Source: a virus (taxonomy: Duplodnaviria > Heunggongvirae > Uroviricota > Caudoviricetes). Taken from it: a stretch of DNA of 3,198 bases. Under the pieces are notes generated by a model. The model was not told the origin of the DNA, made no database searches, and saw only the letters and a list, made by a program, of their open reading frames with translations. Both the position numbers and the translations under genes were made by a program. Shown here one piece after another: positions 1-3,198 of this stretch (the first letter of the stretch is position 1; each line of letters begins with the position of its first letter). The stretch is taken from IMG/VR virus record IMGVR_UViG_2563366850_000002; one strand, written 5' to 3'.

Positions 1-351
1 ACCGTCGCCCCCGCCCGTCTGCGTGAGGCCATCAAGTCAGGCATGGCGGAGACGAATGCGGAGCTGTACGAGTACCGCGAACAGAAAATTGCCGCCGGTT
101 TTACGCGTCTGGCGGACGTCCCGGCGGACGACATCGACGGTGAAAGCATCAAGGTTTTTTACTACGAGCGCGCCGTGTGTGCGATGGCGACCGCGTCGCT
201 TTATGAGCGTTACCGCGGCGTGGATGCCAGTGCGAAAGGCGACAAGAAGGCCGACAGCATTGACAGCACCATTGATGAACTGTGGCGGGATATGCGCTGG
301 GCGGTGGCGCGTATCCAGGACAAGCCGCGCTGCATCGTGAGTCAAATCTGA
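1..351 (+). CDS. L: Head completion/stabilisation protein gpL (P2-like), C-terminal ~116 codons plus stop; 5' end lies outside the window start and the N-terminal part is at 3015..3198
   Basis: Frame 1 is open from position 1 and reads TVAPARLREAIKSGMAETNAELYEYREQKIAAGFTRLADVPADDIDGESIKVFYYERAVCAMATASLYERYRGVDASAKGDKKADSIDSTIDELWRDMRWAVARIQDKPRCIVSQI, ending at TGA 349..351. This matches my recollection of the P2 gpL C-terminus. The stop overlaps the next start by 1 nt (TGATG), as expected for adjacent phage late genes. Confidence 0.85.
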   Translation, partial: TVAPARLREAIKSGMAETNAELYEYREQKIAAGFTRLADVPADDIDGESIKVFYYERAVCAMATASLYERYRGVDASAKGDKKADSIDSTIDELWRDMRWAVARIQDKPRCIVSQI

Positions 352-554
352 TGAAGACCTTTGCGCTACAGGGCGACACGCTCGACGCCATTTGTGTCCG
401 GTATTACGGGCGCACTGAGGGCGTGGTCGAGACTGTGCTCGCCGCAAATCCGGGACTGGCTGAACTGGGTGCGGTGCTGCCGCACGGCACCGCCGTCGAA
501 CTGCCCGACGTTCAGACCGCGCCCGTGGCTGAAACTGTCAATCTGTGGGAGTAA
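351..554 (+). CDS. X: Tail protein X (P2 gpX-like, small LysM-like protein), 67 aa, apparently intact
   Basis: ATG at 351..353 and TAA at 552..554. The translation MKTFALQGDTLDAICVRYYGRTEGVVETVLAANPGLAELGAVLPHGTAVELPDVQTAPVAETVNLWE matches recalled P2 gpX in length and sequence. Native L-X-Y order is preserved. Confidence 0.85.
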   Translation: MKTFALQGDTLDAICVRYYGRTEGVVETVLAANPGLAELGAVLPHGTAVELPDVQTAPVAETVNLWE

Positions 555-557
555 CGC

Positions 558-842
558 ATGACAGCAGAAGAAAAAAGCGTCCTGTCGCTTTTCGTGATTG
601 GGGTGCTGATTGTTGTCGGCAAGGTGCTTGCCGGTGGTGAACCCATCACCCCGCGTCTGTTTATCGGGCGCATGTTGCTCGGTGGTTTTGTCTCGATGGT
701 TGCCGGTGTTGTTCTGGTGCAGTTTCCTGACCTGTCACTGCCTGCGGTGTGCGGCATCGGCTCCATGCTGGGTATCGCCGGTTATCAGGTGATTGAGATT
801 GCCATTCAGCGCCGCTTTAAGGGCAGGGGGAAGCGGAATTAA
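558..842 (+). CDS. Y: Holin (P2 gpY-like), 94 codons; the last 2-3 codons may derive from the junction with the V fragment
   Basis: ATG at 558 is preceded by GGGAG about 7 nt upstream. The translation MTAEEKSVLSLFVIGVLIVVGKVLAGGEPITPRLFIGRMLLGGFVSMVAGVVLVQFPDLSLPAVCGIGSMLGIAGYQVIEIAIQRRFKGRGKRN has hydrophobic transmembrane segments and a basic C-terminus, and matches recalled P2 holin gpY. TAA at 840..842. Confidence 0.85.
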   Translation: MTAEEKSVLSLFVIGVLIVVGKVLAGGEPITPRLFIGRMLLGGFVSMVAGVVLVQFPDLSLPAVCGIGSMLGIAGYQVIEIAIQRRFKGRGKRN

Positions 843-1104
843 AACGGCCAGCGTGACGGCTTCTGATTCTGTTACTGCCACGGTGCCGGTGGTCATGGTG
901 AAAGCATCAACCCGCGTCACCCTGGACACACCGGAGGTGGTCTGCACCAACAGGCTGATTACCGGCACGCTGGAAGTGCAGAAGGGCGGGACGATGCGCG
1001 GCAACATTGAACACACCGGCGGTGAACTCTCATCAAACGGGAAGGTACTGCATACCCATAAACACCCCGGCGACAGCGGCGGCACAACCGGGGGACCTCT
1101 ATGA
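832..1104 (+). pseudogene. V: 3' fragment (~90 codons) of baseplate spike gene V (P2 gpV-like); the 5' ~120 codons are missing and there is no native start
   Basis: Frame 1 reads SGIKTASVTASDSVTATVPVVMVKASTRVTLDTPEVVCTNRLITGTLEVQKGGTMRGNIEHTGGELSSNGKVLHTHKHPGDSGGTTGGPL, ending at TGA 1102..1104. This matches the recalled C-terminal third of P2 gpV. The six-frame ORF 793..1104 starts at an ATG inside the holin gene in another frame and is not a native start. The ATGA stop/start overlap with W is preserved. Confidence 0.8.
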
Positions 1105-1448
1105 CAGCGCGTTATCTCGGAATGAATCGCAGTGATGGCCTGACTGTCACTGACCTTGAGCATATCAGCCAGAGTATCGGCGATATCCTGCGCACGCCGG
1201 TCGGCTCACGGGTGATGCGTCGTGATTACGGCTCGTTGCTGGCGTCAATGATTGACCAGCCGCAGACCCCGGCGCTTGAGTTGCAGATTAAGGTCGCCTG
1301 TTACATGGCGGTGCTGAAATGGGAACCCCGCGTCACCCTGTCATCTGTCACCACGGCGCGCAGTTTTGACGGGCGAATGACGGTCACGTTAACCGGCCAG
1401 CACAACGACACCGGCCAGCCACTTTCGTTAACCATCCCTGTGAGTTGA
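1101..1448 (+). CDS. W: Baseplate wedge protein gpW (gp25/GPW family), 115 aa, intact
   Basis: ATG at 1101 overlaps the V stop (ATGA). The translation MTARYLGMNRSDGLTVTDLEHISQSIGDILRTPVGSRVMRRDYGSLLASMIDQPQTPALELQIKVACYMAVLKWEPRVTLSSVTTARSFDGRMTVTLTGQHNDTGQPLSLTIPVS matches recalled P2 gpW with the expected length. TGA at 1446..1448. Confidence 0.9.
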   Translation: MTARYLGMNRSDGLTVTDLEHISQSIGDILRTPVGSRVMRRDYGSLLASMIDQPQTPALELQIKVACYMAVLKWEPRVTLSSVTTARSFDGRMTVTLTGQHNDTGQPLSLTIPVS

Positions 1449-1452
1449 AACT

Positions 1453-1626
1453 ATGCCGATTATCGACCTGAACCAGCTACCCGCACCGGATGTGGTCGAG
1501 GAGCTGGACTTTGAAACCATTCTTGCCGAACGCAAGGCGACACTGATTTCCCTTTATCTGGGAGCTTTACGCCGCAACCGGTGTGGATGCCGTACCGATT
1601 CGTTTTGCAGGCTCTTACCAGCGTGA
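1453..1626 (+). pseudogene. J: 5' fragment of baseplate gene J (P2 gpJ-like): about 35 native codons (1453..~1557), then out-of-frame read-through into FII-derived sequence, stopping at TGA 1624..1626 (57-codon ORF)
   Basis: ATG at 1453 lies 4 nt after the W stop. The N-terminus MPIIDLNQLPAPDVVEELDFETILAERKATLISLY matches recalled P2 gpJ, then the sequence diverges (LGALRRNRCGCRTDSFCRLLPA*). Native gpJ is about 300 aa. Confidence 0.8.
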
Positions 1627-1861
1627 CGATACCGGCGAAACGGTGGCCGTCGAGGTGGTCATGCGTGGACGTCAGAAAGAAATCGACACCGGCGAGGGTA
1701 AACAGGGAGAAGACACCGAGTCGAAAATCTCCGTGGTCTGCACTTATTTCCGGCTGACGATGGACGGTAAGGAGCTGGTCGAAATTGACACCATCAACAT
1801 GATTGAGAAGGTGAACGGCGTCGACCGGCTGGAGCAACACCGCCGCAATATCGGCCTGTGA
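1553..1861 (+). pseudogene. FII: 3' fragment (~100 codons) of tail tube gene FII (P2 gpFII-like), copy 1; no native start codon
   Basis: Frame 2 reads (F)IWELYAATGVDAVPIRFAGSYQRDDTGETVAVEVVMRGRQKEIDTGEGKQGEDTESKISVVCTYFRLTMDGKELVEIDTINMIEKVNGVDRLEQHRRNIGL, ending at TGA 1859..1861. This matches the recalled C-terminal ~60% of P2 gpFII. There is an in-frame stop at 1544..1546. The tracked ORF 1583..1861 begins at an internal GTG with no Shine-Dalgarno. Confidence 0.8.
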
Positions 1862-1868
1862 TTTTCAT

Positions 1869-1889
1869 CCGGTCAGCCTGGCTGACCGG
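1869..1889 (+). other. Perfect inverted repeat/stem-loop in the FII-E intergenic region (CCGGTCAGC ctg GCTGACCGG), copy 1
   Basis: A 9-bp perfect stem with a 3-nt loop, 8 nt after the FII stop. No run of T follows it, so it is not a canonical intrinsic terminator. It may be an RNA stability or attenuation element within the operon. Confidence 0.5.
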
Positions 1890-1917
1890 TTAACCCTGAT
1901 TCATAAGTGAGAAAACC

Positions 1918-2106
1918 ATGAACAAAGAAAATGTCATTACCCTGGACAATCCGGTCAAACGTGGTGAGCAGGTTATCGAACAGGTCACGCTGATGAAACC
2001 CAGTGCCGGGACGCTGCGCGGTGTCAGTCTGGCAGCGGTCGCGAACTCCGAAGTCGATGCACTGATTAACGTGCTGCCGCGCATGACGAACGCAAGGCGA
2101 CACTGA
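1918..2106 (+). pseudogene. E: Truncated copy of tail assembly chaperone gene E: 57 native codons fused at the duplication junction to 5 non-native codons (NARRH) and a stop
   Basis: ATG at 1918. MNKENVITLDNPVKRGEQVIEQVTLMKPSAGTLRGVSLAAVANSEVDALINVLPRMT is identical to the start of the full E copy at 2478 except N versus K at one residue. It diverges after 2088 into J-derived sequence read out of frame. The frameshift site and E' extension are absent from this copy. Confidence 0.8.
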
Positions 2107-2112
2107 TTTCCC

Positions 2113-2421
2113 TTTATCTGGGAGCTTTACGCCGCAACCGGTGTGGATGCCGTACCGATTCGTTTTGCAGGCTCTTACCAGCGTGACGATACCGGCGAAA
2201 CGGTGGCCGTCGAGGTGGTCATGCGTGGACGTCAGAAAGAAATCGACACCGGCGAGGGTAAACAGGGAGAAGACACCGAGTCGAAAATCTCCGTGGTCTG
2301 CACTTATTTCCGGCTGACGATGGACGGTAAGGAGCTGGTCGAAATCGACACCATCAACATGATTGAGAAGGTGAACGGCGTCGACCGGCTGGAGCAACAC
2401 CGCCGCAATATCGGCCTGTGA
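2113..2421 (+). pseudogene. FII: 3' fragment of tail tube gene FII, copy 2 (duplicate of 1553..1861)
   Basis: Identical to copy 1 at a 560-nt offset except one synonymous difference (1786 T versus 2346 C, ATT/ATC Ile). TGA at 2419..2421. Confidence 0.8.
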
Positions 2422-2428
2422 TTTTCAT

Positions 2429-2449
2429 CCGGTCAGCCTGGCTGACCGG
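2429..2449 (+). other. Same inverted repeat/stem-loop, copy 2 (inside the duplicated unit)
   Basis: Identical sequence at a 560-nt offset. Confidence 0.5.
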
Positions 2450-2477
2450 TTAACCCTGATTCATAAGTGAGAAAACC

Positions 2478-2753
2478 ATGAACAAAGAAAATGTCATTAC
2501 CCTGGACAATCCGGTCAAACGTGGTGAGCAGGTTATCGAACAGGTCACGCTGATGAAACCCAGTGCCGGGACGCTGCGCGGTGTCAGTCTGGCAGCGGTC
2601 GCGAACTCCGAAGTCGATGCACTGATTAAGGTGCTGCCGCGCATGACGGCACCGATGCTGACCGAGCAGGAAGTCGCCGCGCTGGAACTGCCTGACCTTG
2701 TGGCGCTGGCCGGTAAGGTGGTCGGTTTTTTGTCGCCGAACTCGGTGCAGTAA
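2478..2753 (+). CDS. E: Tail assembly chaperone gpE (P2-like), 91 aa, intact; analogue of lambda G
   Basis: ATG at 2478, TAA at 2751..2753. The translation MNKENVITLDNPVKRGEQVIEQVTLMKPSAGTLRGVSLAAVANSEVDALIKVLPRMTAPMLTEQEVAALELPDLVALAGKVVGFLSPNSVQ matches recalled P2 gpE. The native position after FII is preserved. Confidence 0.9.
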   Translation: MNKENVITLDNPVKRGEQVIEQVTLMKPSAGTLRGVSLAAVANSEVDALIKVLPRMTAPMLTEQEVAALELPDLVALAGKVVGFLSPNSVQ

Positions 2754-2905
2754 CGTTCCCGAAAAATCTGTCGGTCGATGACCTGATGGCGGATGTGGCA
2801 GTGATATTTCACTGGCCGCCATCAGAACTGTATCCCATGAGCCTGACCGAACTCATCACATGGCGCGAAAAGGCGCTCCGGCGAAGCGGAAACACGAATG
2901 AGTAA
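2478..2905 (+). CDS. E': gpE+E' (P2-like), made by programmed -1 ribosomal frameshift at 2726..2732; extension ends at TAA 2903..2905 (about 142 aa total)
   Basis: The slippery heptamer T_TTT_TTG sits in the E frame near the E 3' end. The -1 frame downstream is open and reads VAELGAVTFPKNLSVDDLMADVAVIFHWPPSELYPMSLTELITWREKALRRSGNTNE*, matching the recalled P2 E' C-terminus. Confidence 0.8.
2726..2732 (+). promoter_or_regulatory. Programmed -1 frameshift slippery sequence (TTTTTTG) for E to E+E' recoding
   Basis: The heptamer T TTT TTG is in the X_XXY_YYZ register relative to the E frame (codons TTT 2727..2729, TTG 2730..2732), with an extended open -1 frame downstream. Recoding at this kind of site in P2-like E/E' and lambda G/GT is established knowledge. 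Confidence 0.75.
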
Positions 2906-3014
2906 CAATGTAAAATTACCGAATGCGCCCCGCGCCAGGGCGGCACGCCGGTCAGTGAGGGTGAATCACCTGACACTGCACCGGCGTCCACCGCCCGACT
3001 TTTCAGAGGTGGTC

Positions 3015-3198
3015 ATGATGACGCTGATTATTCCGCGAAAGGAGGCTCCCGTGTCCGGTGAGGGTACGGTGGTCATCCCGCAACCGGCAGGCGACGAGCC
3101 GGTGATTAAAAACACGTTCTTTTTTCCCGATATCGACCCGAAGCGCGTCCGGGAACGTATGCGCCTTGAGCAGACCGTCGCCCCCGCCCGTCTGCGTG
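3015..3198 (+). CDS. L: Head completion/stabilisation protein gpL, N-terminal 61 codons; continues beyond the window end and is in frame with 1..351
   Basis: ATGATG at 3015 is preceded by GAGGTGG 4 nt upstream. The translation MMTLIIPRKEAPVSGEGTVVIPQPAGDEPVIKNTFFFPDIDPKRVRERMRLEQTVAPARLR matches the recalled P2 gpL N-terminus. The last 25 nt are identical to window positions 1..25 and the frames agree. Confidence 0.85.
   Translation, partial: MMTLIIPRKEAPVSGEGTVVIPQPAGDEPVIKNTFFFPDIDPKRVRERMRLEQTVAPARLR
3174..3198 (+). repeat. Terminal 25-nt identity with window positions 1..25 (ACCGTCGCCCCCGCCCGTCTGCGTG), consistent with circular or tandem-unit topology with a 3173-bp unit
   Basis: Direct comparison of the window ends. 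Joining them reconstitutes a 510-nt (169 aa plus stop) gpL ORF, the expected size for P2 gpL. Confidence 0.9.

Follow-up and report, generated by a model that had tools for sequence, protein, structure and literature searches.

A self-closing 3173-bp mosaic of P2 late genes in a decayed Escherichia coli prophage, consistent with a collapsed tandem duplication

Small circles made purely of phage DNA are known as plasmids of the lambda dv type, which retain the phage origin and initiator genes. Tandem duplications and amplifications that arise via very short junction homologies are established in Salmonella, E. coli and Acinetobacter (Roth, Andersson, Reams and Neidle). Such amplifications are usually held by dosage selection, and their repeats collapse in short-read assemblies. 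Decayed P2-like (Peduovirus) prophages are present in closed genomes, at pflA/pflB in NCTC9041 and at yegQ in FORC_082 and ETEC1701; these remnants carry several internal deletions that fuse gene fragments (I′/FI′ and V′/H′/FI′) and keep FII-E-T-U-D-ogr.

The DNA analysed in the present study, a stretch of 3198 nt referred to below as the window, resembles each of these in part. It matches the closed P2 remnants with 97–99% nucleotide identity in the same late genes, one of them (NCTC9041) at the same insertion site, and has internal deletions of the same kind, but its breakpoints are different and the examples examined contain no head-to-tail repeat. With the known amplifications it has in common a 2-nt head-to-tail junction, the retention of the normal downstream continuation, a nested smaller duplication and, as we propose, collapse during assembly, whereas its repeated unit is phage structural debris without a detected promoter. 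If closed, it would be, like lambda dv, a small circle purely of phage DNA, but it keeps none of the P2 replication region. As in an assembler's circularisation overlap, the contig ends are identical and their joining restores an intact gene, although this contig is not free-standing: it lies between sized gaps in a 3.24-Mb scaffold and has a 149-nt overlap with its neighbour. No literature was found under the accessions or the strain name.

The window corresponds exactly to a single contig in the draft genome of E. coli KTE156 (GCA_000351965.1, scaffold KB733421.1, at approximately 1,422,875–1,426,072). Positions 1–25 are identical with positions 3174–3198 (25 of 25 nt, both ACCGTCGCCCCCGCCCGTCTGCGTG), giving a period of 3173 bp, and such a match was obtained in none of 200 dinucleotide-preserving shuffles. 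Joining 3015–3173 to 1–351 gives a 510-nt ORF, the product of which is identical with gpL (WP_000988633.1) of an intact P2-like prophage (L007, 7918–8427) and covers the whole of the Pfam profile Phage_GPL (E = 8e-55). These data bear out the initial annotation, which had reported that the end repeats the start and that gpL is split across the ends. A closed or repeated unit is indeed implied, as it had said; closure of the unit is due to a T′-to-L junction, J5, and not to the 25-nt overlap. Two observations go beyond that annotation: the closing junction lies outside L (2918–2919), and the unit is itself a mosaic with two scars and an inner duplication. The features are as follows.

1–25, + strand: left copy of the terminal identity, within gene L; contig start, preceded by 6,695 N in the scaffold
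1–351, + strand: 3′ part of the gpL gene with its stop codon, which with 3015–3173 encodes an intact protein of 169 aa
351–554, + strand: gpX (tail protein X), intact
558–842, + strand: holin Y with an altered C-terminus (native ...GKP-stop, here ...GKRN-stop)
831–832, + strand: deletion scar J1, from Y (R18C 6985) to mid-V (R18C 10557), ~3.6 kb lost, shared bases AA
833–1104, + strand: C-terminal fragment of gpV (baseplate spike), with spike trimer and apex motif
1101–1448, + strand: gpW (gp25-like baseplate wedge protein), intact
1453–1556, + strand: first 104 nt of gene J
1524–2083, + strand: copy 1 of the inner 560-bp tandem repeat, comprising 41 nt of J, the C-terminal part of FII and a truncated E
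1554–1556, + strand: deletion scar J2, from J (R18C 11293) to mid-FII (R18C 18753), ~7.5 kb lost, shared bases TTA
2084–2643, + strand: copy 2 of the inner 560-bp tandem repeat
2087–2088, + strand: J3, head-to-tail junction of the inner duplication, from E (R18C 19287) back to J (R18C 11253), shared bases CG
2478–2753, + strand: gpE (tail assembly chaperone), intact
2786–2905, + strand: E′ reading frame (Pfam Phage_P2_GpE), intact
2898–2919, + strand: first 22 nt of the tape-measure gene T
2918–2919, + strand: J5, closing head-to-tail junction, from T (R18C 19558) back to the M/L spacer (R18C 5898), shared bases AC, sequence AAATTAC|CGAATGC
2920–3014, + strand: M/L intergenic spacer, beginning 2 nt past the M stop codon (R18C 5898 onward), 100% identical with R18C
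3015–3198, + strand: 5′ part of the gpL gene (head completion protein), continuing at window position 26
3174–3198, + strand: right copy of the terminal identity, within gene L; contig end, followed by 4,290 N in the scaffold

That this organization is not native to P2, as had been supposed, is confirmed by the make-up of the unit, in which two deletion scars link three pieces that are not adjacent in P2. Piece 1 holds the M/L spacer, L, X and the holin gene, piece 2 the V C-terminus, W and the start of J, and piece 3 the FII C-terminus, E, E′ and 22 nt of T. The window aligns as five same-strand collinear pieces, 97–100% identical, both with phage R18C and with an intact prophage that occupies the same pflB site in E. 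coli. The R18C parts kept are 5898–6985, 10557–11293 and 18753–19558; R18C 6986–10556 and 11294–18752 are absent, the gene order then loops from T to L, and the native order (L X Y K lysABC R S V W J I H G ... FI FII E T) is not followed. The ORFs of the unit are late structural or lysis genes without exception, and Pfam matches were obtained to Phage_GPL, Phage_tail_X, Phage_holin_3_2, Phage_spike, GPW_gp25, Phage_tube, Phage_TAC_7 and Phage_P2_GpE. The tail of holin Y is changed because J1 cuts 7 nt before the Y stop codon, and the endolysin and spanin genes downstream of holin Y are deleted. The J ORF passes out of frame into FII-derived DNA to form a 57-aa chimeric ORF ending at 1626. The two inner copies differ at two bases: copy 1 has a private C at 2070, and copy 2 has C at 2346, as in R18C, where copy 1, a sister strain (see below) and L007 have T; the difference at 2346 is a known P2 polymorphism and represents the allele of another P2-like phage. 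No P2 origin, cos site or late promoter was found in the 3173-bp unit, and the kept R18C parts, as we take it from the P2 map, exclude gene A with the origin and the genome ends with cos. Neither a sigma-70-like promoter nor a TGT-N12-ACA dyad was found in the window. The prophage is a remnant and is not functional.

Base-by-base comparison showed that exactly 2–3 nt are shared at all junctions. Longer microhomology, as suggested by BLAST overlaps of 5 and 11 nt, was rejected, as only these 2–3 exact bases are left by the same comparison. With so few exact bases, slippage between substantial direct repeats is also rejected, and the overlap is too short for mistaken joining in a k-mer graph, so that reads must span the junctions. 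The J2 scar is repeated at 2114–2116. At both J3 and J5 a downstream point is joined to an upstream point on the same strand, as in a tandem duplication, with J5 fusing the first 22 nt of T to the M/L intergenic spacer. J3 and J5 are seen in the KTE156 assembly alone. Exact searches with words spanning J5 gave no match in viral, genome or metagenome contigs, those with words spanning J2 gave none in genome and metagenome contigs, and J5 and J1 are both absent from 5,426 complete E. coli genomes; the source assembly was traced through the chimeric holin protein instead. The chimeric proteins are known from NCBI-derived sources only (NCBI, nr and UniRef), with no record in the independent Logan read assemblies, in which other rare holin variants are usually represented.

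The flanking sequence, which the initial annotation had proposed as arbiter, gives a partial answer, the window being a complete contig bounded by N gaps on both sides within a chromosomal scaffold and not a stand-alone circular contig. It sits inside the decaying P2-like prophage beside pflB, where the scaffold places it between the prophage genes M and T. Window positions 2771–2919 recur in the next contig, which then continues as a normal T-U-D-ogr, so that the right wild-type flank (the E′/T continuation) is present; the left wild-type flank, in which the spacer follows the last 381 nt of M, is unassembled and falls in the 6,695-N gap. The KTE156 genome thus holds both the normal E′/T continuation and the novel T′/L junction, a combination that is the hallmark of head-to-tail repeats. 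In the scaffold, 14,183 bp separate the M contig from the T contig. A single remnant copy would need only 2.8–3.4 kb, which gives an indirect hint of two or more copies, but the corresponding distance in intact prophages is 13.2–13.9 kb, which this span fits equally. Three gaps lie within 20 kb of the prophage, the first of which is given as 905 N where 1,513 bp are expected, i.e. it is off by ~600 bp. Gap sizes were rejected as a means of choosing between an array and an intact prophage, both of which fit within that error. The gaps beside the window contig are pure N and hold no contigs of the inner segments of an intact prophage. Both ends of the contig lie mid-L, a short way upstream of where the first differences from R18C occur, and not at the J5 branch point.

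A second assembly, from a distinct strain (GCA_000408785.1), carries both J1 and J2 and leads in a gap-free contig through these scars into T-U-D-ogr-pflB-focA-ycaO. This sister strain differs from KTE156 by seven private SNPs in T-U-D, and because the scars are common to a distinct strain and contiguous with pflB, they are inherited and chromosomal. The same prophage end, ogr-pflB-focA-ycaO, is found in closed genomes, in keeping with a P2-type chromosomal site. In the sister strain, too, the scaffold begins within L, at the base following a polymorphic site. These mid-L breaks are a hint of a second allele of L, which may come from a further P2-like prophage.

We consider it somewhat more probable than not that a chromosomal tandem duplication or amplification in a decayed prophage has been collapsed by the assembler into the window. 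An ancestor lost ~3.6 kb (from the end of Y to mid-V) and ~7.5 kb (from the start of J to mid-FII) by illegitimate joining at 2–3 shared bases, which left a compact block of L, X, the holin gene, V′, W, J′, FII′, E and E′, followed by T-U-D-ogr. Within this block two nested head-to-tail duplications would then have occurred in KTE156, again at 2-base microhomologies: an inner one at J3, duplicating 560 bp, and an outer one at J5, bounded by a point just past the M stop codon and by codon 8 of T, which produced the 3173-bp unit. The short-read assembler would have collapsed the tandem copies to one traversal that ran 25 nt past the point where it began, with a sized gap left at either side; about four to five units could be accommodated in the scaffold spacing. 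As the unit is without a P2 origin, cos site or late promoter, most likely it has no function and is a silent by-product of the decay of the prophage. A collapsed duplication agrees with the presence in closed genomes of other P2 remnants with independent internal deletions, one of them at the same site. Against it stand the need for two rare, nested duplications, for which no selective reason is evident, in a block where no promoter was detected, the unassembled left M/spacer flank, the break of the contig mid-L instead of at J5, the equally good fit of the 14.2-kb span to an intact prophage, the two base differences between the inner copies, the absence of J5 and J1 from complete genomes, and the restriction of the chimeric proteins to NCBI-derived sources.

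The initial annotation had listed a circle, a tandem array and an assembly artefact, and this list was the right one. An artefact is a possibility to be taken seriously, if clearly a less probable one: KTE156 may have one copy of the block, or an intact prophage with related P2 sequence elsewhere, with J5 and J3 being spurious assembler paths and the 25-nt closure having no counterpart in the DNA. The source might be, for example, a graph tangled by another P2-like prophage of partly identical sequence, or chimeric library molecules that had been over-amplified. The assembly is indeed poor here, as its three gaps and the ~600-bp error show, and several of the observations above would suit such an origin, namely the 14,183-bp span, the contig ending mid-L near the first sites that differ from R18C and the sister scaffold starting beside a polymorphic site, the allele at 2346 known in another P2-like phage, the restriction of J5 and J3 to one assembly, and the lack of Logan sources for the chimeric proteins, unlike most other rare holin variants. 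Both junctions are also backward jumps, such as might be expected from fragment circularisation in jumping libraries. However, junctions of that type are random per molecule, and jumping-library chimeras were rejected as the main source of the backward junctions; random chimeric reads do not reach consensus depth, and overlaps of 2–3 nt cannot come from k-mer graph mis-joins. Moreover, the unique 3.6-kb and 7.5-kb inner segments of an intact prophage would be expected as contigs where the gaps are pure N, and J1 and J2, which look the same in kind as J5 and J3, are confirmed in an independent assembly of a different strain.

That second assembly also bears on two readings in which J5 is real. 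P2 forms tandem double lysogens, and if two P2-like prophages lay head to tail at pflB, J5 would, like J1 and J2, be a simple forward deletion, running from T in the left-hand prophage to the M/L spacer in the right-hand one and giving L twice with no true duplication of the decayed block; the breaks in L, with their hint of a second allele, would suit this. We nevertheless think it unlikely, as J1 and J2 lie on both sides of J5 (by the closure and by the sister strain), so that the left copy needs identical scars, which places the duplication after the deletions, and an unscarred left copy would be expected to supply its unique inner genes as contigs between M and T, where there are none. We give least credence to an extrachromosomal 3173-bp circle excised from the remnant, i.e. 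the minicircle of the initial annotation, which would give the same closure and the same J5 junction. It would hold late-gene pieces only, and without gene A, the P2 origin and cos it could not replicate, be packaged or reach assembly-level abundance; in addition, the contig is scaffolded into the chromosome between M and T, and the sister strain has the J1 and J2 scars in its chromosome. Neither an origin or initiator gene nor a free molecule, as would mark an autonomous replicon, was found for the unit, and no entry among 72,556 plasmid records reaches 80% coverage of the window. The 9.8-kb unnamed ‘plasmid’ CP077217.1, which has an L piece at its end, is a linear record with IS66 genes and not a related circle. 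A circle common to both strains was likewise rejected, since a non-replicating circle is not heritable and the strains differ by the seven nearby SNPs.

Overlapping contig ends are thus no evidence of a circular element when the contig is part of a scaffold and has gaps on both sides, and contigs of this type are open to being mistaken for minicircles, plasmids or small phages. On the preferred reading of a collapsed duplication, the window offers a snapshot of prophage decay in which four illegitimate joins with 2–3 shared bases each lie within 3 kb, two being inherited deletions and two strain-specific head-to-tail duplications, and in which the lysis enzymes and most tail genes are lost. 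If a stable four- to five-fold amplification were true, the maintenance of a block with no detected promoter would pose a modest question. It is improbable, scarcely less so than the free circle, that a real several-fold amplification or a continually regenerated circle is kept by dosage selection in this clinical isolate; the candidate selected items would include, for example, the altered-tail holin, gpW, gpE/E′ or the in-frame T′-spacer-L fusion, and a decayed prophage fragment would then have been domesticated through amplification.

The initial annotation had proposed a circular or tandemly repeated unit of approx. 3.17 kb with gpL split across its ends, and both the identity of the ends and the rebuilding of gpL on joining proved to be correct. 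The first 25 bases of the window are the same as the last 25 (ACCGTCGCCCCCGCCCGTCTGCGTG) at a spacing of 3173 bp, and none of 200 dinucleotide-preserving shuffles gave any terminal match. Joining 3015–3173 to 1–351 yields a 510-nt reading frame, the 169-amino-acid product of which is identical with the head-completion protein gpL from an intact P2-like prophage and matches the Pfam family Phage_GPL over the whole profile.

BLAST against the P2-like reference phage R18C resolved the unit into five pieces, a map that also holds for an intact prophage in a complete E. coli genome, and every gene or fragment in the unit is supported by Pfam.

Pieces of the unit and their counterparts in R18C (BLAST; all on the same strand)
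2918–3198 plus 1–832, R18C 5898–6985: M/L spacer, L, X and holin gene Y
828–1564, R18C 10557–11293: V C-terminus, W and the first ~110 nt of J
1554–2088, R18C 18753–19287: FII C-terminus and part of E
2084–2124, R18C 11253–11293: second appearance of 41 nt of J
2114–2919, R18C 18753–19558: FII C-terminus, E, E' and the first 22 nt of T

The junctions between these pieces were placed by base-by-base comparison with both parental sequences.

Junctions in the unit
831–832 (J1), common bases AA: deletion scar, ~3.6 kb lost
1554–1556 and again 2114–2116 (J2), common bases TTA: deletion scar, ~7.5 kb lost
2087–2088 (J3), common bases CG, junction sequence CATGACG|AACGCAA: backward (head-to-tail) join that makes an inner 560-bp tandem repeat
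2918–2919 (J5), common bases AC, junction sequence AAATTAC|CGAATGC: backward (head-to-tail) join that closes the unit

The unit is thus closed at J5, by the fusion of T at codon 8 to a point 2 nt past the M stop codon and not within L; the 25-nt overlap simply marks where the contig was cut. Late genes missing from the contig are K, lysA/B/C, R, S, I, H, G and FI. The copies of the inner repeat (1524–2083 and 2084–2643), which comprise 41 nt of J, the FII C-terminus and part of E, differ from one another at two bases, i.e. C at 2070 compared with G at 2630, and C at 2346 compared with T at 1786. The C at 2070 is private and lies 17 nt from J3; the C at 2346 is the allele of R18C. Both copies also contain a near-perfect palindrome, CCGGTCAGCCTGGCTGACCGG, in the FII–E intergenic spacer (1869–1889 and 2429–2449), which may form a hairpin in the transcript and is followed by no T run.

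A look-up of the chimeric holin protein (558–839) returned two NCBI assemblies. In the draft genome of Escherichia coli KTE156 (GCA_000351965.1), a strain of the Broad Institute KTE series, the window is identical with positions 9444–12641 of the prophage locus (L002), corresponding to approx. 1,422,875–1,426,072 of scaffold KB733421.1. Because this match is exact and is bounded by runs of N on either side (6,695 on the left and 4,290 on the right), the window is one entire contig of the scaffolded draft. On the left, the neighbouring contigs carry terminase P, capsid N and codons 1–120 of M; the assembly is missing the final 381 nt of M. The right-hand contig contains an exact copy of window 2771–2919 and passes from it by the normal sequence (...AAATTAC AGGTATTG...) to T, U, D and ogr. 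A third gap of 905 N (L002 271–1175) stands in for the 5' end of P, most of O and the promoter region between them; the corresponding interval measures 1,513 bp in intact relatives, so that either the estimate is ~600 bp short or there is a further deletion. Exact searches of viral, genome and metagenome collections with the junction words gave no match, and J1 and J5 were found in none of 5,426 complete genomes.

The locus from a sister strain (L003, GCA_000408785.1; protein EOW62587.1) is a gap-free contig with its first base at window position 154, inside L. It has both the J1 and the J2 scar and a single copy of the 560-bp unit, and it extends past E, E', T, U, D and ogr to pflB, focA and ycaO. 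Junctions aside, 2070 and 2346 are the only positions at which it departs from the window, and it has seven private SNPs across T–U–D, so it represents a related yet distinct strain. Since this distinct strain has both scars in a sequence contiguous with pflB, J1 and J2 are inherited chromosomal deletion scars of a P2-like prophage at the pflA/pflB site, where strain USDA-ARS-USMARC-51408 has an intact relative. We also observed a 14-nt exact direct repeat, GGTGAAAGCATCAA, at 139–152 in L and 897–910 in the V fragment; the sister contig starts 2 bases past its first copy and 1 base past site 153, which differs from both reference phages, and this start point may reflect a second L allele or branching of the assembly graph.

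In the KTE156 genome the novel T'/L junction occurs alongside the normal continuation from E' to T, which would mean that L, and with it the whole block, is present in at least two head-to-tail copies, or that a circle exists beside the chromosome. We favour the former, in which two nested tandem duplications would have arisen by illegitimate recombination and been collapsed by the assembler, with the unrepresented copies lying in the gaps that flank the window contig. This is favoured because the reads must hold the junctions, as we infer from junction overlaps of 2–3 nt, which are too short for a mis-join in a k-mer graph. In the scaffold the M and T contigs are 14,183 bp apart; one copy needs 2.8–3.4 kb, and four to five units need ~12.9–16.1 kb, or ~10.7–13.3 kb if the remaining units are without the inner duplication. 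A free extrachromosomal circle is unlikely, as the unit keeps neither the P2 replication region nor the cos ends (judged by the P2 map), has scars that lie in the chromosome in the sister strain, and was scaffolded between M and T. The alternatives raised at the outset (circle, tandem array or artefact) were sensible. The evidence makes a minicircle less likely and a collapsed chromosomal tandem repeat within a decayed prophage more likely.

The main rival, which we regard as possible but rather doubtful, is that J5 and J3 are artefacts of assembly or of the library. In its favour, 14.2 kb is about what separates M from T in an intact prophage (13.2 kb in the E. coli prophage L007 and 13.9 kb in R18C), the gap sizes are rough, as the 905-N gap illustrates, and the end of M is unassembled. 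In addition, the contig breaks in the middle of L rather than at J5, the branch point, the sister scaffold likewise begins in L next to a polymorphic site, and inner copy 2 carries the R18C allele at 2346. The chimeric proteins are on record solely from NCBI-derived sources (NCBI, nr and UniRef), with two contigs for the 558–839 protein and one for the 1918–2103 protein, and none from Logan read assemblies; the protein of the inner duplication is found in KTE156 only. By comparison, 45,974 blocks contain the intact W allele, and other rare holin variants of the same cluster usually have a Logan source. Either the KTE reads are outside the index or an independent assembler missed the junctions. 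These observations would fit an assembly graph tangled by a second P2-like prophage. However, an intact late region would have given unique contigs of 3.6 and 7.5 kb, yet the gaps are pure N, and we retain collapsed nested tandem duplications as the favoured explanation.

The P2 late promoters, located upstream of O, V and FI, fall outside the retained pieces, so the unit lacks them. Neither a sigma-70-like promoter nor a TGT-N12-ACA dyad was found in the unit, which is most likely silent. The holin (558–842) keeps its full Pfam domain, with its C-terminus altered at the deletion scar (...GKRN* in place of ...GKP*), and is an orphan, its endolysin, LysA and spanin partners having been deleted. 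J5 also places the first seven codons of T in frame with the M/L spacer and L, giving a potential 208-amino-acid T'–spacer–L fusion (2898–3173 joined to 1–351; MSNNVKLPNAPRARAARRSV...), an agreement of frame to which we attach no weight because its chance is one in three.

Prophage decay of this kind is ordinary, and the phenomenon is of a type already known. Independent, internally deleted P2 remnants occur in the closed genomes of NCTC9041, at the same insertion site as in KTE156, and of ETEC1701 and FORC_082, at yegQ; their deletions fuse gene fragments (I'/FI', V'/H'/FI' and O'/M'), and all three keep FII–E–E'–T–U–D–ogrK. The right arm seems to be the part that P2-like prophages preferentially keep. 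A 9,844-bp linear record filed as 'plasmid unnamed2' of E. coli FDAARGOS_1379 (CP077217.1) opens with ~600 bp of sequence from P2 gene L and contains IS66 genes; it is probably not a plasmid but a residual piece of an assembly.
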